Source: an uncultured Clostridia bacterium
Lineage (GTDB): Bacteria > Bacillota > Clostridia > Oscillospirales > CAG-272
Direction: 5' to 3'
Assembly (NCBI GenBank): GCA_947632285.1
Contig: CANROT010000002.1
Location: forward strand, 1 to 42,982
Length of the DNA stretch: 42,982 nt
Of the stretch, positions 20,513 through 38,847 are shown one piece after another; the first letter of the stretch is position 1; the number at the start of each line of letters is the position of its first letter. Under the pieces are notes generated by a model, which was not told where the DNA came from, made no database searches, and saw only the letters and a list, made by a program, of their open reading frames with translations. The position numbers were made by a program, and so were the translations under genes.

Positions 20513-21943
20513 TTATTTTATTATGTCCCCGTACAGGCCGAAAGTATCGGCACGGGTAATTTTGACGTTGTAAAATTCTCCGGGGACCACATCTCCGCGA
20601 ATGTGGACGAGCTTGTTCCCGTCCGTGCGCCCGGTCGGGTCGGCGGGGTCGTCGAAATCGTCGTCCGCGAGCACGCGGAGCGCCTGCCCGACGGCGGATT
20701 CGTTTTTCTCCCTCGATATCGCGTTCTGGCAGTCTATCAGGCGGGCGAACCGCTCCGACTTGACGTCCTCCGGGATCTGCTCCGCCATCTCGGCGGCAGG
20801 CGTGCCGCGGCGGGGAGAGAAGATGAAGGAATATATCATGTCAAACCGCGCGCGGCGCATGACGTCAAGCGTGGCGGCGAAATCGTCCTCCGTCTCGCCG
20901 GGGAAGCCGACCATTATGTCCGACGTGATGACGATATCCGGCATCGCGGCGCGGAGCTTTTCGATGATGCCGAGGTATTTTTCGGCGGTGTAGTGCCTGT
21001 TCATGACGGCGAGGACGCGGTCGCTGCCGGATTGCAGCGGCAGATGAAAGTGGCGGGAGGCGACGCGGCTCTCCGCCATGGCGGCGATGAGGTCGTCGGT
21101 CGCATCTTTCGGGTGCGAGGTCATGAAGCGCAGGCGAAAGTCGCCGTCAAGGCGGGATATCTCGCGAATGAGGTCGGCGAAGGTGACGCCCGAGTCGAGG
21201 TCGTGGCCGTATGAATTGACGTTTTGCCCGAGCAGCGTTATGTCGCGGCAGCCGCCGCCGACAAGGCCGCGCACCTCGGAGATGATATCCTCCGGCAGCC
21301 GCGAGCGCTCGCGCCCGCGGACATACGGGACGATGCAGTACGAGCAGAAGTTGTTGCAGCCGTACATGACGCTGACCCACGCGCGCGTCCGCGACCGGCG
21401 CAGGACCGGGACCTCCTCGGAAAAATCGGTCGAGGAAAGTGACGCCGCAACGTCGGGAAAGCGCCGACGACCGCCGCGAAGGCGGTCAAGGACGAGCTCC
21501 GGCACGCGCCACAGCTCCGTCGTGCAGAACGAGAAGTCAACGTACGGGTAGCTGCGCTTGAGCGCGTCCGCCCTGTGCTGCTGGGACACCATACAGCCGC
21601 CGACGCCGATGATGACGGACGGGTCGGCCGCCTTTATGTGCTTGAGCTGACCGATGCAGGAGAGCGCCTTTTTTTCGGCGTGCTCGCGGACGGCGCACGT
21701 GTTGACGAGAATGAGCGAGCATCCGTCCGGCACGGGCGACGGCTCATATCCCATCGCCTCGGCAAATCCGGCGAGCCGTTCGCTGTCGGCCTCGTTCTGC
21801 TGGCAGCCGAACGTCATGATATAGAATTTCGGGCTGCCGCCCCGCGCCCGCATCATGTCCGTCAGCTCGCGCACGGCCCTGACGGACGAGAGCATCGCCG
21901 ATGACGCGGCGGGCGGTATCAGATTGTTTTGCCTTTTATCCAT
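20513..21943 (-). CDS. miaB: tRNA-2-methylthio-N6-dimethylallyladenosine synthase
   Basis: 476 aa with FGCQQNEADSE, the radical-SAM motif CNNFCSYCIVP and a C-terminal TRAM domain. Confidence 0.93.
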   Translation of the reverse strand: MDKRQNNLIPPAASSAMLSSVRAVRELTDMMRARGGSPKFYIMTFGCQQNEADSERLAGFAEAMGYEPSPVPDGCSLILVNTCAVREHAEKKALSCIGQLKHIKAADPSVIIGVGGCMVSQQHRADALKRSYPYVDFSFCTTELWRVPELVLDRLRGGRRRFPDVAASLSSTDFSEEVPVLRRSRTRAWVSVMYGCNNFCSYCIVPYVRGRERSRLPEDIISEVRGLVGGGCRDITLLGQNVNSYGHDLDSGVTFADLIREISRLDGDFRLRFMTSHPKDATDDLIAAMAESRVASRHFHLPLQSGSDRVLAVMNRHYTAEKYLGIIEKLRAAMPDIVITSDIMVGFPGETEDDFAATLDVMRRARFDMIYSFIFSPRRGTPAAEMAEQIPEDVKSERFARLIDCQNAISREKNESAVGQALRVLADDDFDDPADPTGRTDGNKLVHIRGDVVPGEFYNVKITRADTFGLYGDIIK

Positions 21944-21996
21944 AGTCTTTCAAAATACTGTAAAACCGCTCGCGCGGACAAAATCATACAATCTAT

Positions 21997-22025
21997 ATTA
22001 TACATAAAACCTCGGCGGATTGCAA
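21997..22025 (-). promoter_or_regulatory. Putative sigma-A promoter of the miaB-ylbF-mutSL-tgt block
   Basis: The minus strand reads TTGCAA (22025-22020), a 17-nt spacer, then TATAAT (22002-21997). Confidence 0.55.
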
Positions 22026-22091
22026 TAAGGACGCGAAAAAACGCGCCGATTTTCCGGCGGACCGTTTTTCCCGCTTTTTTTGCGGAAACGC

Positions 22092-22120
22092 TTGACAAAA
22101 TGAGGCATGTCCGATATAAT
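22092..22120 (+). promoter_or_regulatory. Consensus sigma-A promoter of the aromatic amino acid operon
   Basis: Perfect TTGACA (22092-22097), a 17-nt spacer, then TATAAT (22115-22120). Confidence 0.8.
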
Positions 22121-22151
22121 ATATGAAAATAATAAAGAGGGGTACGGGATC

Positions 22152-22229
22152 ATGCCGCGCTTTTACAGAGGCTGCTTTTATTTTTATACAAGACGCGCGA
22201 TGGGCTGCGACATTTTGCCGACCGAGTGA
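22152..22229 (+). CDS. Candidate 25-codon leader peptide rich in Phe/Tyr codons
   Basis: ATG 22152 is preceded by aagagggg (22135-22142). My translation is MPRFYRGCFYFYTRRAMGCDILPTE with stop TGA 22227-22229. It has 3 Phe and 3 Tyr codons within codons 4-12. It lies between the promoter and the terminator upstream of pheA/tyrA. It falls below the track's apparent ORF length cutoff (no listed ORF is shorter than 60 aa). Confidence 0.5.
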   Translation: MPRFYRGCFYFYTRRAMGCDILPTE

Positions 22230-22260
22230 CAGAATAGGTCACAAAAAGGTAAAAACAGCA

Positions 22261-22302
22261 TCCACCGCCGTTTGTCGTGCAAAGGCGGCGGGTGTTTTTT
22301 TA
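22261..22302 (+). terminator. Leader (attenuator) intrinsic terminator immediately upstream of the pheA RBS
   Basis: ccaccgccgtttg-tcgtg-caaaggcggcgggtg, an imperfect GC-rich stem, followed by ttttttt. The pheA RBS gggggag and the ATG at 22313 follow directly. Confidence 0.7.
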
Positions 22303-22312
22303 TGGGGGAGTT

Positions 22313-23401
22313 ATGATGGAACTTGCGGAGGCGAGGCGCCGCATAGACGAGATAGACGGGGAGATGGCGGAGCTTTTCCGCCGGAGAATGGAGGCGGCGG
22401 CCGACGTTGCCGAATACAAGCGCGCGCACGGGCTGCCCGTCTTTGACGCGGAGCGCGAGGCGGCGGTCCTTGAGGCGGGCTCGGCGCGCATCGGTGAGCA
22501 GTCGCTCGTGCTTTACTACAAGCTGTTTTTGCAGTCGGTCATGGACATTTCAAAGCAGTACCAAAAGCGGCTGCTCTCCGGAATGCGCGTCGCGTACTGC
22601 GGCGTGCCCGGCGCGTTCGCGAACATCGCCGCGCGCCGCATCTTCCCGGACGGGGAGGCTGTCTCGTACAGCAGCTTTCACGCGGCTTATGAATCTGTCG
22701 GGCGCGGCGAGTGCGACTGCGCCGTTCTGCCGATAGAGAACAGCTATGCCGGCGAGGTCGGCCAGGTGCTCGATCTGATGTTTTCGGGCCCGCTGTATGT
22801 CAACGGCGTTTACGACCTGCCGGTGACGCATCACCTGCTCGCGCCGGAGGGGGCGGTCCTGTCCGAGATAGAGACGGTCATATCACACCCGCAGGCGCTC
22901 TCCCAGTGCGAGAACTATATAAAAAAGCACGGATTTGTGCAGGTGGAGGCGACGAACACCGCCATCGCGGCGCGCGCCGTCGCCGAAAGCGGGGACCTGC
23001 ACACGGCGGCGATAGCGAGCGAGGAGACGGCGGAGCTCTATCACCTCGCCGTCCTCGACCACGACATAAACGACAGCAACGCGAACACGACGCGGTTCGC
23101 CGTTTTCTCCGGGGTCAAGGAGACGGGGCGGAAAACCGGCGGCAGCTTTATTCTGATGTTCACGGTCAAAAACGCCGCCGGGGCGCTCGCGAGGGCGATA
23201 AGCATCATCGGCGAGCACGGCTTCAACATGAAGGTGCTGCGCTCCCACCCGATGAAGGAGCTCGCGTGGCAGTATTATTTCTATATCGAGGCGGAGGGCA
23301 GCCCGGACGGCGAGGCGGGAGAAGATATGCTCGCGGCGCTTTCCGAGGTCTGCGACAGGCTGAAGGTCGTCGGCGGATATGACGGGGAGGCGAGGCTGTG
23401 A
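22313..23401 (+). CDS. pheA: Bifunctional chorismate mutase / prephenate dehydratase (P-protein) with ACT domain
   Basis: Start at MMELAEARRRIDEIDGEMAELFRRRM (AroQ-class CM). The PDT domain has VAYCGVPGAFANIAA and ENSYAGEV. The ACT domain has FILMFTVKNAAGALARA. The track's GTG 22277 start lies inside the terminator, so I rejected it. Confidence 0.92.
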   Translation: MMELAEARRRIDEIDGEMAELFRRRMEAAADVAEYKRAHGLPVFDAEREAAVLEAGSARIGEQSLVLYYKLFLQSVMDISKQYQKRLLSGMRVAYCGVPGAFANIAARRIFPDGEAVSYSSFHAAYESVGRGECDCAVLPIENSYAGEVGQVLDLMFSGPLYVNGVYDLPVTHHLLAPEGAVLSEIETVISHPQALSQCENYIKKHGFVQVEATNTAIAARAVAESGDLHTAAIASEETAELYHLAVLDHDINDSNANTTRFAVFSGVKETGRKTGGSFILMFTVKNAAGALARAISIIGEHGFNMKVLRSHPMKELAWQYYFYIEAEGSPDGEAGEDMLAALSEVCDRLKVVGGYDGEARL

Positions 23402-24420
23402 AACTCACGCTCGATCTCGGTGCGAGGAGCTACGATATAATCGTCGAGCGTGGCTGCTCGGCGCGCGCCGGGGAATATTTAGACCTCGACCGGCGCGTCC
23501 TCATCGTGACGGACGACGGCGTGCCGGAGCAGTACGCGGACCGCGTCGCCGCCGCCTGCCGCGAGCCGGTCAAAGTCACCGTCCCGCAGGGGGAGGGGAG
23601 CAAGAGCATACAGCGGTTCGAGGAGCTGCTCTGTGAAATGCTCGCGCACGGCTTTACCCGCCGCGACTGCGTCGTCGCCGTCGGCGGCGGCGTTGTCGGC
23701 GATCTTTCGGGGTTCGCCGCGTCCGCGTATATGCGCGGCGTCGACTTTTACAATATCCCGACGACGTCGCTCTCGCAGATAGATTCGTCTGTCGGGGGGA
23801 AAACGGCCGTTAATTTATGCGGAATAAAAAACGTCGTCGGCGCGTTCTACCAGCCGGGGCGCGTGCTCGTCGATCCGGACGTGCTCGCGACGCTGCCGGG
23901 GAGGCAGATGGCGGCGGGGCTCGCGGAGGCGGTGAAAATGGCGGCAGCGCTTGAGGGGGAGCTGTTTTCAATGTTTGAGACGTGCGACATATCTTCGTCG
24001 CTCGAAGAGCTCATCGCGCGCTCCGTTGCGATAAAAATGCGCGTCGTCGAGGCGGACGAGCGCGAGGGCGGGCTGCGCCGCGTCCTCAATTTCGGGCACA
24101 CGATAGGGCACGGAATAGAGGCGGAAGAGGAGCTGCACGGGCTCTGCCACGGCGAGTGCGTCGCGCTCGGAATGCTGCCGATGTGCTCGGGCGAGGTGAG
24201 GGCGAGGCTTTTGGGCGTCTATTCAAGGCTCGGGCTGCCAACGGAGTATGACTATGACGTTGACCGCGTCATCGCCGCCGCGCTCCACGACAAAAAGGCG
24301 GACGGCGAGGGCGTCACAGTCGTCATTGTCGAGAGGATCGGAGAGTTTCGGTTCGAGCATCTCAGCCCCGATATGCTCAGGGCGAGGCTGACCGAATATA
24401 TAAGGGAAAATAAATTATGA
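23398..24420 (+). CDS. aroB: 3-dehydroquinate synthase
   Basis: 340 aa with VAVGGGVVGDLSGFAAS, GGKTAVN and NFGHTIGHGIE. The GTG start overlaps the pheA stop (GTGA). Confidence 0.93.
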   Translation: MKLTLDLGARSYDIIVERGCSARAGEYLDLDRRVLIVTDDGVPEQYADRVAAACREPVKVTVPQGEGSKSIQRFEELLCEMLAHGFTRRDCVVAVGGGVVGDLSGFAASAYMRGVDFYNIPTTSLSQIDSSVGGKTAVNLCGIKNVVGAFYQPGRVLVDPDVLATLPGRQMAAGLAEAVKMAAALEGELFSMFETCDISSSLEELIARSVAIKMRVVEADEREGGLRRVLNFGHTIGHGIEAEEELHGLCHGECVALGMLPMCSGEVRARLLGVYSRLGLPTEYDYDVDRVIAAALHDKKADGEGVTVVIVERIGEFRFEHLSPDMLRARLTEYIRENKL

Positions 24421-25508
24421 AAAACACATTCGGCAACAGCGTTTCGGTGACGCTTTTCGGCGAGAGCCACGGAAAATATATCGGCGCCGTGCTCGACGGG
24501 CTCTCCCCCGGGGTCAGGGTCGATGAGGCGGCCGTCGCGCGCGAGCTCGAAAAGCGCCGCCCCGCTGGCAAGATCTCAACTGCCCGCGTCGAGGCGGACA
24601 AGTTCGAGATCGTCAGCGGCGTCTTTGAGGGAATGACGACGGGCACGCCGATCACGGTCATTATCCCGAACGGGGACACGAAAAGCTCCGACTATGCGCG
24701 CGGCCTGCCGCGCCCGGGGCACGCAGACTACACGGGCTTTGTAAAATATCACGGATTTGAAGACTACCGCGGCGGCGGCCACTTCAGCGGCAGGATCACG
24801 GCGGCGCTCGTCGCCGTCGGCGCTGTCGTGAAGGGGGCGCTCGCCTCGCGCGGGACCATCATCGGCACGCATATCGCGCGCTGCGCCGGGGTAGACGATG
24901 CGCCGTTTTCGGACATTTCCCGGGAAATCGAAATTTTGAACGAAAAGACGTTCGCGGTGCTCGACGAGGGCGCGGGCGAGCGAATGAGGGCTATGATCGA
25001 GTCGGCTGCCGCCGAGGGAGACAGCGTCGGCGGCGTGCTCGAGACGGCGGTGGTCGGCGTCCCGGCGGGCGTCGGCGAGCCGTGGTTCGACACGCTCGAG
25101 GGCGTCATCGCGCACGCGGTGTTCTCGGTCCCGGCAGTAAAGGGGATAGAGTTCGGCGCGGGCTTTGCTGCCGCCGACATGCGCGGCAGCGAGTGCAACG
25201 ACGCGCTCTCCTTGTCGGGCGGCGCGGTCGTTACGGAGACGAACAACAGCGGCGGGATAAACGGCGGAATTTCGAACGGAATGCCGATAGTGTTCCGCAC
25301 GGTAATCAAGCCGACCCCGTCCATATTCAAGCCGCAGAAGACGGTCGATATATTGAAACACGAGGAGGCGGTGCTCGAGCTCCGCGGGCGGCACGATCCG
25401 GCCGTCGTACACAGGGCGCGCGCCGTCCTCGACACGGTGACGGCGATCGCGGTCGCGGATATGCTCGAGACGCGCTTCGGGACGGATTATTTCGGTGGGG
25501 CGCGATGA
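24417..25508 (+). CDS. aroC: Chorismate synthase
   Basis: 363 aa with FGESHG, RPGHADY and GRHDPAVV. ATGA overlap with aroB. Confidence 0.95.
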   Translation: MKNTFGNSVSVTLFGESHGKYIGAVLDGLSPGVRVDEAAVARELEKRRPAGKISTARVEADKFEIVSGVFEGMTTGTPITVIIPNGDTKSSDYARGLPRPGHADYTGFVKYHGFEDYRGGGHFSGRITAALVAVGAVVKGALASRGTIIGTHIARCAGVDDAPFSDISREIEILNEKTFAVLDEGAGERMRAMIESAAAEGDSVGGVLETAVVGVPAGVGEPWFDTLEGVIAHAVFSVPAVKGIEFGAGFAAADMRGSECNDALSLSGGAVVTETNNSGGINGGISNGMPIVFRTVIKPTPSIFKPQKTVDILKHEEAVLELRGRHDPAVVHRARAVLDTVTAIAVADMLETRFGTDYFGGAR

Positions 25509-26746
25509 AGTACGGGTGCATAGCGGAGCGGCTCGGGCACAGCTTTTCCCGCGAAATACATGAAAAAATAGGGCTCTATGAATACGAGCTCCGCGAGGTG
25601 CCGCGCGATGAGCTCGACGGATTTATGACCGAGCGCGATTTTCTCGGCATAAACGTGACTATTCCCTATAAGCGGGACGTGATACCGTATCTGTCCCGGA
25701 TCGATGACGACGCGCGCAGGATAGGCGCGGTCAACACCGTCGTCAACCGCGGCGGGGAGCTCTGCGGATTCAATACGGACCTCCCCGGTATGCGGGCGAT
25801 GATATCCTCCGCGGGGATCGGGATCCGCGGCAAAAAGGCGCTCGTGCTCGGCACGGGCGGCACGTCTCACACGGCGCGGGAGCTCTTGCGTCTGCTCGGC
25901 GCAAAAAAGACCGTCACCGTCAGCCGCACGGGGCGGGACGGGGCCGTGACATACGAGGAAGCGTATCGGCTCCATTCGGACGCGGATATAATAATAAACA
26001 CGACGCCCTCGGGTATGTACCCGGATATAGCGGGTATGCCGATTGACATAGGCATGTTCCCGCGCCTTTCCGGCGTCGTTGACGCCGTATATAATCCGCT
26101 GCGGACGCGCCTTGTAATGGCGGCGCGCGAGCGCGGGATCAAGGCGGTCGGCGGGCTTTATATGCTCGTCTCCCAGGCGGTCTTTGCGGCGGAGCACTTC
26201 ACCGGGGAGAGCCTCGGGCAGGAGCTTGCCGGTCGGATCTATCGCGAGCTGTACCGCGAAAAGCAGAATATCGTGCTCACCGGAATGCCCGGCTCGGGCA
26301 AATCGGCGACCGGGCGCAAGATCGCGTCAATGACGGGGCGGCGGTTCATAGATACAGATGCGGAGATAGTCTCCCGGATCGGTATGAAGATCGCGGACTA
26401 TTTCGAAAAATACGGCGAGGACGCGTTCCGCGACCGCGAGTCCGAGGTGATAGCAGATGTCGCGAAGCTGCACGGCTGCGTCATCGCGACGGGGGGCGGC
26501 GCCGTGCTGCGGGAGGAAAATGTCCGCCTCTTAAAGCAGAACGGGCGCGTATATTATCTCGACCGCCCGATAGAATGGCTGACGCCGACATCTGACCGTC
26601 CGCTCGCGCGGGACGCGGACGCGATACGCGCGCGGTACCGCGAGCGGTACGGAATATATACCGGCACGGCGGACGTCACGATAAGAATGAGAGACGACCG
26701 CCTGTGGAACGCAAAAACGATAATAAGGGAGCACGGAAAATCATGA
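25505..26746 (+). CDS. aroE: Fused shikimate dehydrogenase / shikimate kinase
   Basis: Start at MKYGCIAERLGHSFS (ATGA overlap with aroC). The AroE part has NVTIPYKRDV, GAVNTV, GFNTD and LGTGGTS. The C-terminal about 150 aa is AroK-like, with P-loop LTGMPGSGKSATGR, FRDRES and ATGGGAV. The track ORF start at 25082 is an out-of-context extension across aroC. Confidence 0.9.
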   Translation: MKYGCIAERLGHSFSREIHEKIGLYEYELREVPRDELDGFMTERDFLGINVTIPYKRDVIPYLSRIDDDARRIGAVNTVVNRGGELCGFNTDLPGMRAMISSAGIGIRGKKALVLGTGGTSHTARELLRLLGAKKTVTVSRTGRDGAVTYEEAYRLHSDADIIINTTPSGMYPDIAGMPIDIGMFPRLSGVVDAVYNPLRTRLVMAARERGIKAVGGLYMLVSQAVFAAEHFTGESLGQELAGRIYRELYREKQNIVLTGMPGSGKSATGRKIASMTGRRFIDTDAEIVSRIGMKIADYFEKYGEDAFRDRESEVIADVAKLHGCVIATGGGAVLREENVRLLKQNGRVYYLDRPIEWLTPTSDRPLARDADAIRARYRERYGIYTGTADVTIRMRDDRLWNAKTIIREHGKS

Positions 26747-27174
26747 AGCTGCTCGTCATAAACGGACCGAATCTGAATATGCTCGGCATACGCGAGCCGG
26801 ATATATACGGCAGGGAAACGTATAAAGACGTATGCCTAAAAATAAAGACATATGCCGAAAATATCGGCGTCGAGGTCGAGATCTATCAGTCGAACCACGA
26901 GGGGGACCTCGTGGACAAGATACAGGCATCATACGGGGTGTTCGACGGGATCGTCATAAACCCGGCGGCGTACACGCACACGAGCGTCGCGATACTTGAC
27001 GCGCTCAAGGCGGTGTCGCTCCCGGCGGTCGAGGTCCACATCTCGGACGTGAACGTGCGCGAGCCGTTCCGCCGCGTCAGCTACGCGGGAATGGCGTGCG
27101 AAAAGTCCGTCATAGGCAAGGGGACGGACGGGTATCTTTTAGCGATACAGTACCTTGCTGATAAGCTGAAATGA
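26743..27174 (+). CDS. aroQ: Type II 3-dehydroquinate dehydratase
   Basis: MKLLVINGPNLNMLGIREPDIYG, QSNHEG, NPAAYTHTSVA and VEVHISD. ATGA overlap with the upstream gene. Confidence 0.95.
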   Translation: MKLLVINGPNLNMLGIREPDIYGRETYKDVCLKIKTYAENIGVEVEIYQSNHEGDLVDKIQASYGVFDGIVINPAAYTHTSVAILDALKAVSLPAVEVHISDVNVREPFRRVSYAGMACEKSVIGKGTDGYLLAIQYLADKLK

Positions 27175-28373
27175 GAGCAATATTTGAAAAATCGCGCCTT
27201 TCCGGCGCGGTAAAGGCGCCGCCGTCCAAGAGCGCGGCGCACAGGCTGCTGATCGCGGCCTCGCTCGCGGAGGGCGAGAGCGTCATCACCGGAGTTGAGT
27301 ATTCCGAGGATATTTCGGCAACGCTTGACTGCGCCGCGGCGCTCGGCGCCGAGATCGAAAGATGCGGCTCGACAGTCAAAATAGACGGCCGCCGGTTCCT
27401 CTCCGAGGTCAAGGGTGTGCTTGACTGCCGCGAGAGCGGCAGCACGCTCCGCTTTTTCATACCGCTCGCGATGCTGACGGGTCGTGAGGTGACATTTATC
27501 GGCAGCGGACGGCTGCTCGAGCGGCCGCTCGACGTTTACGAACGGATCGCGGCGGAAAATTCTATTACATTCGCCAAAAAAGGCGGCTGTATAACAGTGT
27601 TAGGCAAATTGCCTAAAAAGAAATTTGTCGTTGACGGCAGCATAAGCTCGCAGTTTGTGACGGGACTCATGTTCGCACTTGCACGTCTCGGCGGCGGGGA
27701 GATACATGTTCTGCCGCCGTTTGAGAGCCGCCCGTATGTGGAGATGACGGCGGCGGCGCTCGGGCTGTTCGGGGCGGAGATAAAATTCTGCGGGAACGAT
27801 ATCACGCTTACGAGAAAGGATCGCCTCCGCCCGTGGTCGGGCGAGGTCGAGGGCGACTTTTCAAACGCCGCGTTCCTCGACGCGTTCGATCTTTTGGGCG
27901 GGGACGTGACGGTGACGGGGCTGCCCGAGGCGAGCGCGCAGGGGGACGCCGCTTACCGCGAATATTATAAAATGCTTGCGGCGGGTTCCCCCGTTATCGA
28001 CCTCTCGGACACGCCGGACCTCGCCCCCGTGCTCATCGCACTTTCGGCGTGCCTGCACGGCGCGACGTTCACCGGAACGAAGAGGCTTGCCGCCAAGGAG
28101 TCCGACAGGGGGGCGGCAATGGCGGAGGAGATGTTGAAATTCGGCGTCCAGATCGATGTCGGCGAGAACTCGATCTCGGTTCCCGGCTGCGGGATATCGG
28201 CGCCGACGGAGCCGCTGCGCAGCCACGGCGACCACCGCGTCGTCATGGCGCTCTCAACGCTCCTGACGGCGACGGGCGGGGAGCTCGTCGGCTGTGAAGA
28301 CGTCCGGAAGAGCTACCCGTCATACTTTGACGCGATTCGTTCGCTCGGGGCAAGGTTTACGATAACGGAATAG
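27171..28373 (+). CDS. aroA: 3-phosphoshikimate 1-carboxyvinyltransferase (EPSP synthase)
   Basis: 400 aa with PPSKSAAHRLLIAASLA, ESGSTLRF, KESDR and DHRVVMA. Confidence 0.93.
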   Translation: MRAIFEKSRLSGAVKAPPSKSAAHRLLIAASLAEGESVITGVEYSEDISATLDCAAALGAEIERCGSTVKIDGRRFLSEVKGVLDCRESGSTLRFFIPLAMLTGREVTFIGSGRLLERPLDVYERIAAENSITFAKKGGCITVLGKLPKKKFVVDGSISSQFVTGLMFALARLGGGEIHVLPPFESRPYVEMTAAALGLFGAEIKFCGNDITLTRKDRLRPWSGEVEGDFSNAAFLDAFDLLGGDVTVTGLPEASAQGDAAYREYYKMLAAGSPVIDLSDTPDLAPVLIALSACLHGATFTGTKRLAAKESDRGAAMAEEMLKFGVQIDVGENSISVPGCGISAPTEPLRSHGDHRVVMALSTLLTATGGELVGCEDVRKSYPSYFDAIRSLGARFTITE

Positions 28374-28390
28374 GGAAGGTAAGAAACAAA

Positions 28391-29248
28391 ATGATAATCG
28401 ACGTCCGAAAAAATATACTCATAGTCGGGCTCGGGCTGCTCGGCGGCAGCTATGCCGAGGCGCTCCACCGGTACGGGTTCCACGTCAGCGCGCTGACGCG
28501 CCGCCAAAGCTCGATAGATTATGCGCTTGAGCGCGGTATCATAGACGAAGGCGCCGAGGGCGTCGACCCCGACATGATCGCCCGCGCCGACCTTGTCGTC
28601 TTCGCGCTTTATCCGCACATTTTCATCGAGTGGATAGAGGAAAACCAAAAGTTTTTTAAGCCCGGCGCGCTCCTGACCGATGTCACGGGCGTCAAGTGCT
28701 CGGTCGTCTACCGCGTGCAGGAGATGCTCCGGCCGGACGTGGAGTTCATCGCCGCGCACCCGATGGCGGGGCGGGAGGTCTACGGCGTCGAAAACAGCAC
28801 GTCCCGAATTTTTGCCGGAGCGAACTACATCGTCACCCCGACCGCGAAGAACACGCGCGACGCCGTCGAGACGTGCCGCGAGCTCGGACTTTTGCTCGGG
28901 TTTTCAAACGTCGCCGAGCTGTCGCCCGAGGAGCACGACGAGATGATCGGGTTCGTCTCGCAGCTTACGCACTGTATTGCCGTCGCGCTGATGACGTGCA
29001 ATGAGGAGGAGCATATAGAGCGCTTCACCGGGGACTCGTTCCGGGACCTGACGCGCATCGCGCGGATAAACGACCTGATGTGGAGCGAGCTTTTCCTCGC
29101 GAATAAGGACGCGCTTTTGCGCCAGATGGATATGTTTACGGCGCAGTTTTTAAAGCTGCGGGACATGATATCGGCGGGCGACGAGGCCGGTATGCGCGAG
29201 ATGATGCGCCACTCTACCGAGCGCCGCGCAAAATTTGACAAAAAGTGA
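28391..29248 (+). CDS. tyrA: Prephenate dehydrogenase
   Basis: 285 aa with the Rossmann motif ILIVGLGLLGGS, DVTGVK, AAHPMAG and SQLTHCIAVAL. Confidence 0.9.
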   Translation: MIIDVRKNILIVGLGLLGGSYAEALHRYGFHVSALTRRQSSIDYALERGIIDEGAEGVDPDMIARADLVVFALYPHIFIEWIEENQKFFKPGALLTDVTGVKCSVVYRVQEMLRPDVEFIAAHPMAGREVYGVENSTSRIFAGANYIVTPTAKNTRDAVETCRELGLLLGFSNVAELSPEEHDEMIGFVSQLTHCIAVALMTCNEEEHIERFTGDSFRDLTRIARINDLMWSELFLANKDALLRQMDMFTAQFLKLRDMISAGDEAGMREMMRHSTERRAKFDKK

Positions 29249-29268
29249 CCCGGGGGACAGGATAGCAC

Positions 29269-30297
29269 ATGAACATGATTTTCGAGCGGAAGCTGCCGAT
29301 ACCACAGGAGGTAAAAAAGCTGTTTCCGATATCCGAGGAGGACACCGCAAACGTCGCGGCGCGCGCCGCCGAGCTGCGGGATATTTTCGAGGGCAAAAGC
29401 GATAAGCTGATACTCATCATCGGGCCGTGCTCGGCGGACAACGAGGACAGCGTGATAGATTACGTCACGCGGCTGCGCCGCCTTGAGGACAAGGTCGGGG
29501 ATAAGATCTTTTTCATTCCGAGGATATACACGAACAAGCCGCGCACGACGGGCGACGGCTACAAGGGCATGCTCCACCAGCCGAACCCGAACGAGAAGCC
29601 GGACATGTATAAGGGGATCCTCGCGATACGCGGTATCCACATGCGCGCTCTACGTGAAACGGGATATTCGTGCGCGGACGAGATGCTTTACCCGGAGGAC
29701 CACAGGTATTTAAACGATATTCTCGCATATGTCGCGGTCGGCGCGCGCTCCGTCGAGAACCAGCAGCACAGGCTGACGGCGAGCGGACTTCTGATCCCGG
29801 TCGGAATGAAGAATCCGACAGGAGGCGACATCTCCGTCATGATGAACGCGATAACGGCGGCGCAGCACAAGCACACGTTTTTGTACCGAGGCTGGGAGGT
29901 CCATTCCCAGGGCAACCCATACGCGCACGCGATCCTGCGCGGGTACGTCGACACATACGGGCAGACGCACCCGAACTATCACTACGAGGACCTCTGCCGC
30001 CTCGCGGAAACGTATGCGGAGAGCGGCCTTTCGAATCCCGCGCTGATCGTCGACACGAATCACGCGAATTCCGGCAAGGTGTATACGGAGCAGCCGCGCA
30101 TCGTCCGCGAGGTGCTGCACTCCTGCCGCATAAATCCGGACATAAAAAAGCTTTTCCGCGGGTTCATGATCGAGAGCTATATCGAGGACGGCGCGCAGAA
30201 GATCGGCGAATGCGTCTACGGCAAGTCCATCACCGACCCGTGCCTCGGCTGGGAGAAGACGGAGAGGCTCGTCTGCGAGATCGCGGACTCGATCTGA
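29269..30297 (+). CDS. aroF: 3-deoxy-7-phosphoheptulonate (DAHP) synthase, class I
   Basis: 342 aa with LIIGPCSADNE, KPRTT..GYKGML and VDTNHANSGK. The isozyme symbol is uncertain. Confidence 0.9.
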   Translation: MNMIFERKLPIPQEVKKLFPISEEDTANVAARAAELRDIFEGKSDKLILIIGPCSADNEDSVIDYVTRLRRLEDKVGDKIFFIPRIYTNKPRTTGDGYKGMLHQPNPNEKPDMYKGILAIRGIHMRALRETGYSCADEMLYPEDHRYLNDILAYVAVGARSVENQQHRLTASGLLIPVGMKNPTGGDISVMMNAITAAQHKHTFLYRGWEVHSQGNPYAHAILRGYVDTYGQTHPNYHYEDLCRLAETYAESGLSNPALIVDTNHANSGKVYTEQPRIVREVLHSCRINPDIKKLFRGFMIESYIEDGAQKIGECVYGKSITDPCLGWEKTERLVCEIADSI

Positions 30298-35061: not shown

Positions 35062-36480
35062 CTATTCTGCCGCTGTCCCGGGCTCCGGCTCGGGCTCCGG
35101 ATCAGGCTCCGGTTCGGTTTCGGTGTCCGATCCCGTGTCGGGCTCAGTCGGCGGTTCTGTGTCAGGTTCCGTCGGTGGCTCAGTGGGCGGTTCGGTATCC
35201 GGTTCAGTCGGAGGTTCTGTCGGCGGTTCGGTCGGCGGTTCGGTCGGCGGTTCGGTGTTCGGCGCTGTCGGCGCATCAGTGTCGGGGCCGGGGGCGGGCA
35301 CGCCGCCGGCGTTGCCGGTGTCGTCGGTATCGTCGGTGTCGTCGGTATCGTCCGTGTCGTCGGTGTCGCCGCCGGAGGGCGGGGCAGCCGTGCTTTCGGG
35401 AGACGTCACGACATAATAGCTGTAAACGCCGTTCTTTATGAGCGCGTCGACCGCCTCCGATTCGAGAAAGAGAATGTCGCCGCGAATGACGAACGCGAGG
35501 CTGTAGAGGGAAACGCTGCTCTTTATCGCAGCCGCCTCACGGTCGAGCTCACCGAATATTTTCGACTCGTATTCCGGCGCAGCGTTCGAATTTTCGTCTC
35601 CGTCCGTGCCGTCGGTGCCGTCGCTGCCGTCGCCCTTGCCGGGGGAGGCGTTTGCCGCGGTATACGACCAGTCGAGGCCGCGCGTGTCAACGGCGAGCGC
35701 GCCCGCCTCATCGGCAAGGGCGTCGAGCGTCTGTGACATCGACGCGTCCTTGAACACGTCGAACGGCAGCGCGAGCCTGATCATCATTCCGGGGACAGAC
35801 GCGTGCAGCTTTTCTATGACGGCGAGGGCGGACGTGCCGCCGTCCGTCAGCGGGATTCCCGATATCAGCGCCTCGTCCGCGCCGAGCGAGTACGCCTCGG
35901 CGATGACCGCCGTTTCATAGAGCATCGTCGCCTCGGAGATCACGGGATCCCGGCTCTCGGCGAACGTCATATCGTAAAAAACGGAAATTTTCGGTTCAAG
36001 TCCGTGCGCGGCGGCAGCGGCTTTTATCTCGCCGAGCTTTTCGCCGAGGCTCGGCAGCTCCGTTGTCTCGGGCTGGCGCGACAGCGCCTTTGCCGCATCG
36101 GAGTCATAGAGCAGCGCGCCCTCATTATCCGTCAGCGGAACGGTCACGGCGTCATAGCCCGCGCCGAACAGCGCGTCCGCGCTGCCGGTCGCGATGGAAA
36201 AGCAGCCGGAGCGCATGCTTGTATGCTTCTGCGCCGCGTCCCCGATGGACGGGCCGGACGGCGCCGCCTCACCCGTATCTCCGGTGAACACCGGGGAGCC
36301 GTCGCCCCCGTCGACCTTTCCGCGCAAATAGTTCCCGAGGAGGACGGCGCCGACGATGCAGACGATGACGAATATGACGATGCCGAGCACGGTCAGATTT
36401 TTTTTCAATTTCCGCTTGCCGTGGCGGCGCTTTTTGCCGTAGTGCTTGTACTGTATCGGCGCGTGATACGGTTTGTTCAT
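35062..36480 (-). CDS. N-terminally membrane-anchored extracytoplasmic protein with a low-complexity DTD/TEPP repeat tail
   Basis: 472 aa. A basic N-terminus is followed by the TM helix LTVLGIVIFVIVCIVGAVLLG. The central globular region is unassigned. The C-terminal repeats are DTDDTDDTDDTDDTDDT and TEPPTEPPTEPPTEPPTEPDTEPP... Confidence 0.7.
   Translation of the reverse strand: MNKPYHAPIQYKHYGKKRRHGKRKLKKNLTVLGIVIFVIVCIVGAVLLGNYLRGKVDGGDGSPVFTGDTGEAAPSGPSIGDAAQKHTSMRSGCFSIATGSADALFGAGYDAVTVPLTDNEGALLYDSDAAKALSRQPETTELPSLGEKLGEIKAAAAAHGLEPKISVFYDMTFAESRDPVISEATMLYETAVIAEAYSLGADEALISGIPLTDGGTSALAVIEKLHASVPGMMIRLALPFDVFKDASMSQTLDALADEAGALAVDTRGLDWSYTAANASPGKGDGSDGTDGTDGDENSNAAPEYESKIFGELDREAAAIKSSVSLYSLAFVIRGDILFLESEAVDALIKNGVYSYYVVTSPESTAAPPSGGDTDDTDDTDDTDDTDDTGNAGGVPAPGPDTDAPTAPNTEPPTEPPTEPPTEPPTEPDTEPPTEPPTEPDTEPPTEPDTGSDTETEPEPDPEPEPEPGTAAE
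35080..35372. repeat. Short-period tandem repeats (12-nt ggttcggtcggc-type and 9-nt gtcgtcggt-type) within the coding sequence
   Basis: Read directly from the sequence. They encode the TEPP and DTD repeats on the minus strand. Confidence 0.85.
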
Positions 36481-38747: not shown

Positions 38748-38847
38748 GCACAGAGTAGGCGTGCGCGCGTAAAGTGTCCCGGGGACGGGGAGTTGCCCCG
38801 GGGACGAAGAGAAATCGCGGTGCGTATGCCGCATCCCGCTGATGCAC
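38748..38847 (+). promoter_or_regulatory. THF (tetrahydrofolate) riboswitch, class I
   Basis: gcaCAGAGUAGgcgugcGCGCGUAAAGUGucccggggACGGGGAGUugccccggggACGAAGagaaauCGCGGUGcguaugccGCAUCCCGCUGaugc aligns block by block with the Eubacterium siraeum THF aptamer as I recall it (AGAGUAG, GCGUUAAGUG, GGGAUGU, ACGAAG, GCGCGGUG, GCAUCCGCU). It lies upstream of folT-folC. Confidence 0.85.

Follow-up and report, generated by a model that had tools for sequence, protein, structure and literature searches.

How does an uncultured Clostridia bacterium control its genes for the synthesis of phenylalanine (Phe) and tyrosine (Tyr)? The question is raised by a leader of about 190 nt in front of pheA in contig CANROT010000002.1 (assembly GCA_947632285.1), of which positions 1 to 42,982, the whole 42,982-nt stretch analysed, are termed the window here. 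An initial annotation of this DNA, made from its letters, had proposed a leader-peptide attenuator instead of a T-box or a site for TRAP (trp RNA-binding attenuation protein), and had suggested an alignment of orthologous leaders, a scan with Rfam covariance models and folding with masked codons. All of these checks that could be run came out in favour of the proposal. As read from its sequence, the leader is likely a ribosome-mediated Phe/Tyr (F/Y) transcription attenuator, which would sense charged tRNA-Phe and tRNA-Tyr. The elements on which this reading is built are the following.

22092–22097 and 22115–22120, + strand: −35 (TTGACA) and −10 (TATAAT) hexamers of a sigma-70 promoter with a 17-nt spacer, 12/12 match
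22137–22142, + strand: Shine–Dalgarno (SD) sequence of the leader, GAGGGG, 9 nt 5′ of the ATG
22152–22229, + strand: leader open reading frame (ORF) of 25 codons plus TGA, with the ATG at 22152, the TGA at 22227–22229 and the peptide MPRFYRGCFYFYTRRAMGCDILPTE
22161–22166 and 22176–22187, + strand: regulatory codons Phe4-Tyr5 and Phe9-Tyr10-Phe11-Tyr12; Trp codons are absent
22197–22208, + strand: segment 2, GCGAUGGGCUGC, codons A16-M17-G18-C19, forming the 5′ side of the helix that closes the antiterminator
22258–22268, + strand: segment 3, GCAUCCACCGC, pairing with segment 2 (antiterminator) or segment 4 (terminator)
22197–22268, + strand: antiterminator, a single long hairpin with imperfect pairing (−23.8 kcal/mol, z = −3.82)
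22259–22294 and 22295–22301, + strand: GC-rich stem-loop (−19.9 kcal/mol, from folding) and U7 tract of an intrinsic terminator
22304–22310, + strand: ribosome-binding site (RBS) of pheA, GGGGGAG, with the pheA ATG at 22313
22313–30297, + strand: the regulated operon of the proposal, pheA (chorismate mutase–prephenate dehydratase–ACT), aroB, aroC, an aroE-aroK fusion, aroQ, aroA, tyrA and a 3-deoxy-D-arabino-heptulosonate 7-phosphate (DAHP) synthase gene, assigned by Pfam and NCBIfam

Two competing RNA structures form the centre of the leader. The antiterminator (22197–22268) and the terminator stem (22259–22294) have nucleotides 22259–22268 in common and are therefore mutually exclusive. In the antiterminator, GCGAUGG, situated just 3′ of the F/Y codons, pairs with CCACCGC of the terminator 5′ arm to form the closing helix, and the leader stop codon (22227–22229) is located in the 5′ strand of the apical stem. 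The GC-rich hairpin with a T7 run beside the pheA RBS, described in the initial annotation, is present, at 22259–22301 instead of 22261–22302, and its U7 tract ends 3 nt before the RBS. The antiterminator strand suggested there fared differently: the pairing of 22171–22180 with 22250–22259 does exist in the window (−9.8 kcal/mol), but it is not conserved, with a median of about −3 kcal/mol in the 17 leaders of the window's class (defined below). As a functional antiterminator it is rejected, being absent in orthologues, and the conserved helix between 22197–22208 and 22258–22268 takes its place.

The leader is compared with 160 loci carrying PheA orthologues at 52–72% identity (80 genome and 80 metagenome loci), nearly all labelled Clostridia, Oscillospiraceae, Acutalibacteraceae or Ruminococcaceae metagenome-assembled genomes (MAGs) from animal gut. 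Upstream ORFs (uORFs) are counted when an SD and an ATG are followed by at least five F/Y codons within a 9-codon window, and the 400 nt 5′ of pheA are compared with the sequence elsewhere on both strands; every leader in the comparative set is selected with an SD 4–14 nt 5′ of its ATG. The density of such uORFs is 0.89 per kb within the 400 nt 5′ of pheA and 0.007 per kb elsewhere, an enrichment of about 127-fold in the first 80 loci, and five of the seven matches elsewhere are the same kind of leader situated further upstream. In total, the 160 loci yield 70 unique F/Y leaders in at least six sequence classes, and 67 of the 70 are followed by an intrinsic terminator within about 20–80 nt. 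Where a DAHP synthase gene lies ahead of pheA, the leader and the terminator precede the DAHP synthase gene.

Sixteen of these leaders resemble that of the window (peptides such as ...FYFY..AMDxC...) and, together with it, constitute the 17 members of class 1; in each of them the stretch from segment 2 through segment 3 forms a single long hairpin (z between −1.4 and −5.5). Two blocks are nearly invariant in the class alignment: GCGAUGGAU, located 3–4 codons after the F/Y run, and AUCCACCGC, which corresponds to the terminator 5′ arm. Apart from one A·C mismatch, formed in the window by A22200 and C22265 and kept in 15 of the 17 members, the two blocks are complementary. The 9-bp closing helix is 81.7% paired across the alignment, compared with 27–54% in slid registers. 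Furthermore, three of its pairs are changed on both sides, giving a covariation score of 0.173 against 0.082 in shuffles, and none of 500 shuffles reaches it.

A covariance model, R1, which spans segment 2 to the terminator, scores 71 bits in the window and has no further hits except pheA leaders, all of which reach at least 37 bits, with noise at 17 bits or below. The resulting family consists of the window and 33 related loci among those sampled, 34 members altogether, and includes the ten closest relatives, a set of ten contigs obtained by a protein search with PheA 72–84% identical. All ten carry the element (47–68 bits). In these ten and the window, the same multi-stem hairpin is formed with the stop codon in its apical stem, and the inner and apical stems differ in sequence yet pair in all 11 sequences (GUGAC/GUCAC, CUGACC/GGUCAG, GGGACUU/AGUCCC, AUGAAC/GUUCAU). 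In the window's subgroup the ORF runs into the hairpin and stops in the apical stem, whereas a short-ORF subgroup (MFFNCYFYYYFISAID) stops directly after segment 2, as in the classical design.

The promoter, given as a perfect TTGACA-17-TATAAT in the initial annotation, is perfect indeed, with 12/12 matches at 22092–22120; a shuffled 1.5-kb region averages 0.6 sites at the far looser threshold of 9/12. From its position, transcription is predicted to start near 22127. An alternative in-frame ATG at 22107 lies 5′ of the −10 hexamer and should therefore fall outside the transcript. In the aligned upstream regions, the class-1 orthologues have TTGACA and a TATAAT-like −10 at the equivalent position, and the relatives have AAAGGAG or AGAGGGG at the position of the SD. 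The SD and the 25-codon ORF with F4, Y5, F9, Y10, F11 and Y12 are present as first described, only with the ATG at 22152 instead of 22153. Six F/Y codons are thus found among leader codons 4–12, and the downstream operon includes the pheA and tyrA functions, as had been noted at the outset and as Pfam and NCBIfam now corroborate. Orthologous leaders preserve the ORF together with its start signals and F/Y codons, and the short ORF with its own SD and ATG recurs at the 33 related loci.

Across the 70 leaders, the peptides contain 17.8% Phe, 11.8% Tyr and 0.3% Trp. Both synonymous codons are in use for Phe and for Tyr, and TTT makes up 82% of leader Phe codons, compared with 51% in pheA. A possible role of the F/Y codons as NusG pause motifs (TTNTTT), which could have reconciled an attenuator with runaway transcription, is set aside: 45 of the 70 leaders have one, and the mean of 1.34 against 1.15 expected from pheA-like codon usage amounts to no real enrichment. 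Among other amino-acid-rich uORFs in the window, none apart from 22152–22229 looked regulatory, and the only one examined in context, the Met-rich 36356–36442, is antisense within a minus-strand ORF.

Two kinds of constraint are separated within the ORF. A motif search that ignores the F/Y codons gives 21 matches in about 2 Mb, all located 5′ of pheA and all in frame with an F/Y run. The Ala codon at segment 2 is GCG in 20 of the 21, while the F/Y codons vary synonymously and exchange Phe with Tyr. In one member (L162, approximately 500–690), a 1-nt deletion exists between the F/Y run and segment 2, giving the ORF MRFYFYCFYFYTVCDGVRHFAG-stop as read by hand; the start codon and eight F/Y codons are retained, and the nucleotides of segment 2 are unchanged but stand in another frame, with an altered downstream peptide. 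The frameshift and the constancy of GCG together indicate that the 'AMD/AMA' motif is constrained as RNA and the F/Y run as codons, with L162 as a natural control.

These observations also bear on an arrest-peptide sensor, in which a nascent FYFY peptide would stall the ribosome in response to free Phe/Tyr or another signal, in the manner of TnaC and not through uncharged tRNA. In the close relatives, whose leader peptides include MSRFRCGYFYFYTTCAMACDILPTV, MSDVRFYGCFYFYTMCAMACDIMPVR and MSGRRAKSLYFYFYICAMDCVNAPETDR, the N- and C-terminal ends are free to vary around a retained FYFY core, and no other part of the peptide is as well conserved as this FYFY-like core; some other classes retain longer motifs as well, for example ARFYAGF and KGCP. 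However, the order and the number of F/Y residues vary freely (FYFY, YFYYYF, FFFF, YYYFF), the flanking residues are unconserved, and the motifs 3′ of the run show conservation even at synonymous positions and persist despite a frameshift, which makes them RNA constraints. Moreover, sensing of the free amino acids would induce biosynthesis when the products are abundant, which is the wrong sign for this geometry, and an arrest peptide is hardly credible here.

In the attenuation scheme, transcription would begin at the perfect promoter, and a ribosome would load at the strong SD and translate the 25-codon leader. When Phe and Tyr are plentiful, the ribosome would pass the six F/Y codons, move over and beyond segment 2 and end at the UGA in the apical stem; with that region occupied or unwound by the ribosome, segment 3 would be free to pair with segment 4, the terminator would form and the polymerase would halt at the U7 tract, short of pheA. 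Under a shortage of Phe-tRNA or Tyr-tRNA, the ribosome would stall with codons 4–5 or 9–11 in the A site and its leading edge short of segment 2. Segment 2 would then pair with segment 3 on its emergence, the antiterminator would block the terminator, and the eight genes would be transcribed. The scheme supposes that the ribosome stalls at these codons and follows the polymerase without falling behind, that the terminator works in vivo and that stalling sets termination.

The footprint geometry agrees with this order of events in 16 members analysed with a 30-nt mask on transcripts cut before the terminator 3′ arm. On such transcripts the antiterminator is the minimum-free-energy structure in all 16. 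A footprint over the early or middle F/Y codons leaves it standing, and it disappears when the A site has moved beyond the last of them, so that the masked folds proposed in the initial annotation give the expected outcome: a mask on the F/Y codons leaves the antiterminator intact, and a mask further 3′ destroys it. In the window, the probability (P) of the antiterminator is 0.88 with the A site up to codon 8, declines to 0.78, 0.62 and 0.51 at codons 9–11, and is 0.24–0.46 once the A site lies beyond the F/Y run.

A conserved 1:2 anti-antiterminator or pause hairpin, formed by segment 2 with upstream sequence, was looked for in the class members; none is consistent, and only the L012/L033 subgroup has one. 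Consequently, the untranslated leader should default to read-through and not to super-attenuation, and the window's class would represent a three-segment switch. The 1:2 helix is a trait of the trp, phe and his archetypes and is not required by the mechanism as such.

Several points weigh against the attenuator. Equilibrium folding with ribosome masks favours the terminator (with an inner hairpin) in most members at any ribosome position, with P above 0.85; since the terminator is dominant at equilibrium, the switch has to be kinetic, as in classical attenuators such as trp. With Tyr12 in the A site, the edge of the footprint just touches segment 2 and the sequestration probability falls from 0.88 to 0.40, so that only stalls at codons 4–5 and 9–11 spare segment 2 cleanly. 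At the stop codon the ribosome covers the hairpin interior only and not segment 2, and the block of 2:3 pairing at this position rests on a steric argument. In addition, Bacillota are classed at the phylum level as having runaway transcription (PMC13323073); if that is valid here, translation would lag too far behind and the antiterminator would form in every case. The covariation of the closing helix comes from about three independent lineages only, namely the L012 clade (G-C to U-A), L004 and L076; both strands are otherwise nearly invariant, and this near-invariance could reflect an extra constraint, for example a bound factor. Finally, the attenuator is a prediction from sequence.

The invariance of the closing helix leads to another explanation, in which a trans-acting factor, either an RNA-binding protein or a small ligand, would set the real switch at the GCGAUGGAU/AUCCACCGC helix with its A·C mismatch, and translation of the F/Y ORF would be secondary or modulatory. 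The closing-helix strands are indeed far more conserved than pairing needs, the mismatch is present in 15 of the 17 members, and the class members have no conserved anti-antiterminator. Such a factor, however, leaves unexplained the SD and the ATG-initiated F/Y ORF in every member and in at least five other classes of unrelated RNA sequence. L004 and L076 exchange the motif for compensated sequences and close the A·C mismatch to A-U, no Rfam riboswitch or protein-binding leader matches, and the two alternative partners of the shared strand suffice to explain the strong conservation. Control by a factor in trans is accordingly regarded as improbable, and the attenuator is retained as the preferred reading.

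The arrangement of the leader and the operon is relevant to a further alternative, in which the uORF would act after transcription, on pheA translation or on mRNA stability through reinitiation or ribosome protection, and the hairpin with its U-tract would be a constitutive partial terminator or a processing or stability element. The strong translation signals of the leader ORF and the terminator abutting the pheA RBS are compatible with this. The leader stop at 22229, however, lies 83 nt 5′ of pheA, too distant for coupling, and 30 nt 5′ of the terminator stem; a conserved competitor for the terminator 5′ arm would have no role, and the enrichment for codons of the pathway's own end products would stay unexplained. 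An effect confined to later steps is therefore very unlikely. A coupling attenuator of the pyrBI type was also considered and rejected: the leader ORF stops 30 nt before the terminator stem (11–48 nt in the relatives, measured from the leader stop to the start of the terminator) instead of running through the terminator.

The gene 5′ of the leader (20513–21943, − strand) is transcribed divergently, and the hairpin at 22259–22301 is therefore not the terminator of a preceding gene. Downstream, the eight-gene operon contains no trp genes, and its ORFs overlap or abut, for which reason the genes within 22313–30297 are taken to form a single transcription unit. If so, the whole shikimate-Phe-Tyr pathway is probably under one tRNA-charging sensor. 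The shikimate dehydrogenase (aroE) and shikimate kinase (aroK) are joined in one ORF of about 413 aa (25505–26746, + strand), with NCBIfam and Pfam matches to both halves. The longest ORF of pheA, 22277–23401 (374 aa), begins at a GTG within the terminator stem, and the gene calls of the orthologues (proteins P0004–P0012, 363–398 aa) are likewise too long at the 5′ end, with the terminator hidden and the leader ORF ignored. Gene callers thus carry pheA 5′ through the terminator, in calls of 374–398 aa, and overlook the leader ORF.

T-boxes and TRAP are the textbook regulators of aromatic genes in Firmicutes, and one relative, L008, has a T-box about 1.2 kb 5′ of pheA; an overlooked T-box, TRAP leader, riboswitch, enterobacterial Phe leader or lactococcal Leu/Phe leader therefore has to be considered. 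However, Rfam 15 (4227 families, including RF00230, RF01859 and RF01743) gives no match to the leader at the gathering score, and a permissive scan of 21950–22400 at E < 10 gives three noise matches only, the best with E = 0.17, on terminator-like features. The leaders of 20 representative relatives from all classes have no Rfam match either. The T-box model does find the T-box of L008, which indicates that the search works. The T-box core string, reported absent by the initial annotation, is indeed not found in the leader by string search, in agreement with the Rfam scan. A TRAP site, that is, 9–11 (G/U)AG repeats with 2–3-nt spacers overlapping an antiterminator, is likewise lacking: only five scattered triplets exist, and the longest properly spaced chain is one. 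A known RNA class is thereby effectively refuted. The sole Rfam match in the window is a tetrahydrofolate riboswitch (RF01831) at 38749–38843 (+ strand), with 81.4 bits against a gathering score of 36.

The F/Y leaders are widespread among the relatives. Among the 160 nearest relatives sampled, one is present at no fewer than 57 of the 128 loci where pheA heads the operon (at least 45%), and this figure is an undercount because duplicate sequences are collapsed. The view that a leader-peptide attenuator would be unusual for this lineage consequently holds against Firmicute models of the B. subtilis type and fails among the relatives, where such leaders are common. The classes other than that of the window are only partly analysed. 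In a cross-leader permutation, the 33 nt after the F/Y run are tested with their own and with a foreign terminator arm; the Wilcoxon p is 2.6e-6 overall, for sequences that are not independent, and the effect is clear for class 1 and the KGCP class but unclear for the ARFYAGF and NNGFYYF classes, which have a different geometry. Sequestration of the 5′ arm against dinucleotide shuffles was discarded as a test, since GC-rich arms pair with many sequences and discrimination is poor.

The second F/Y leader class is larger and includes L010, L018, L019 (e.g., L019:2687–2855), L022, L026, L062, L096 and others. Its members share a near-invariant block UUCGCGCGCUUUUAUGCGGGCUU, a peptide of the form ..F(T/A)FARFYAGFYC.. 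and a conserved terminator GCGGUUCUGUUUUCGGGCAGAGCCGC, and a subgroup ends in A(V/A)R(T/M/A)-stop. Folds of single sequences suggest a classical four-segment design for the ARFYAGF class, in which the F/Y codon region would pair with the CGCUCGAACGG block at the end of the ORF; RNAalifold recovers only the terminator and a 4-bp hairpin. In the KGCP class (M..FFYYFYYF.KGCP.. followed by a terminator; L068:660–728, L078, L131, L144, L154, L155, L159), the leaders are situated about 1.2 kb 5′ of pheA, before the DAHP synthase gene that precedes it. The KGCP codons are complementary to the terminator 5′ arm, and L131 has two tandem leaders (at 50 and 255).

Other relatives (L007, L013, L015, L023, L028, L046, L071, L072) have no F/Y leader and contain a conserved near-palindrome, (T)TAACAGTGTTAAC, 15–30 nt 5′ of the pheA RBS. 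From its form, it looks like a transcription-factor operator and may represent an alternative aromatic control in the same clade. The T-box of L008, an Acutalibacteraceae MAG, is a match to RF00230 with 100.1 bits at L008:1589–1839. The T-box, the operator-like palindromes and the F/Y leaders together indicate that related genomes use differing control for the same genes. Three contigs labelled Treponema or Spirochaetia (L040, L049, L080) also carry a Clostridia-like pheA (54–58% identity) with F/Y leaders (MNTNTFAFFSFEAFSFYYFSKNG..), which suggests mis-binning or else a horizontal transfer in which operon and leader moved as a unit.

These leaders are of interest for being so widespread and for falling into diverse, apparently independent classes. 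Attenuation by a ribosome works only where translation stays abreast of RNA polymerase, and Johnson et al. 2020 are said to have tied the scarcity of leader-peptide attenuators in Bacillota to the runaway-transcription view. Between the timing of an attenuator and the runaway label of the phylum there would thus be a tension. Lacking an anti-antiterminator, the class of the window could work as a switch only where the translating ribosome gets to segment 2, at 45 nt into the ORF, earlier than the polymerase completes segment 3, about 110 nt from the ATG. If the attenuator is real, these Bacillota would keep the ribosome and RNA polymerase closely coordinated, by coupling or by programmed pausing, and a lineage in which about half of the pheA-led operons are so controlled would be an exception, or evidence that local pausing suffices. 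The element of about 190 nt would in that case be a compact natural reporter for testing phylum-wide 'runaway transcription'. A broader proposal goes further: that Phe/Tyr leader-peptide attenuators are the dominant aromatic control across gut and rumen Oscillospirales-like Clostridia, invented repeatedly in at least six unrelated classes, with the window's class demanding a ribosome–polymerase coordination that contradicts the runaway label. It is offered tentatively, as somewhat more doubtful than probable. In any event, the covariance model with its 34 members describes a new cis-regulatory RNA family in Clostridia of gut and rumen, mostly uncultured, about whose regulation very little is known.

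On the other side of the promoter, the divergent gene at 20513–21943 (− strand) is miaB (TIGR01574, 458.7 bits against a cutoff of 355.3). MiaB makes 2-methylthio-N6-isopentenyladenosine at position 37 (ms2i6A37) of tRNAs reading UNN codons, including tRNA-Phe and tRNA-Tyr, which are also the tRNAs that the leader would sense. The divergent miaB–pheA pair also occurs in the close relatives L001, L164, L166 and L167 but does not recur across the wider set. At 22044–22059 lies a short GC hairpin, CGCCGATTTTCCGGCG, with T-runs flanking it on both strands; it sits between the pheA promoter and a promoter-like site on the miaB side (22025–21997, 10/12 matches) and may be a bidirectional insulator or terminator.

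Among known systems, amino-acid leader-peptide attenuators do exist within Firmicutes. The L. lactis Leu/Phe leader (RF01743; Weinberg et al. 2010, PMC2864571) is one of them, and His leader-peptide attenuators are predicted in the B. cereus group, C. difficile and Erysipelotrichales (PMC2965389, PMC9413887). Compared with the window, these leaders involve other amino acids, other operons and other sequences in narrow taxa, and RF01743 gives no match. Within the searchable literature, no Phe/Tyr leader described for aromatic operons of Clostridia turned up. The predicted uORFC-13-1 of Acholeplasma (Brewer et al. 2021, PMC8632094), with at least one Phe codon arising from a U run, lies next to an intrinsic terminator 5′ of aroF alone and has 24 examples, in Acholeplasma and environmental sequences only. 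Compared by description, it resembles the window in having a predicted Phe uORF and a terminator before a shikimate gene in a lineage allied to Firmicutes.

The closest functional analogue, as far as the account given in PMC11802643 extends, is aroR of C. glutamicum (Neshat et al. 2014, via PMC11802643), a Phe-Tyr-Phe leader before the aroF operon that is reported to respond to Phe and not to Tyr. Both leaders have mixed Phe/Tyr regulatory codons. Unlike the window, aroR is actinobacterial and has only three regulatory codons and another first gene; the likeness is one of description.

The design itself is that of pheL-pheA and trpL in E. coli. In both these and the window, a short translated leader with codons for the pathway product is followed by an intrinsic terminator ahead of the first structural gene, one strand of the terminator also belongs to an antiterminator, and the position of the ribosome decides the structure, or would decide it in the window. 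Moreover, pheA, encoding the chorismate mutase–prephenate dehydratase, is the first regulated gene in both pheL-pheA and the window. The differences are considerable: the window has no similarity to the E. coli leaders in sequence or covariance model (RF01859 does not match), and its host is a Clostridia bacterium. Its regulatory codons are mixed Phe and Tyr, whereas those of pheL are Phe only, and unlike pheL and trpL its element would control the whole common pathway together with tyrA. The 1:2 anti-antiterminator or pause hairpin of the E. coli leaders has no conserved counterpart in the window's class, and the leader stop is located inside the antiterminator hairpin instead of before segment 2. 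In these terms, the leader of the window is an undescribed sequence family of a known mechanism.

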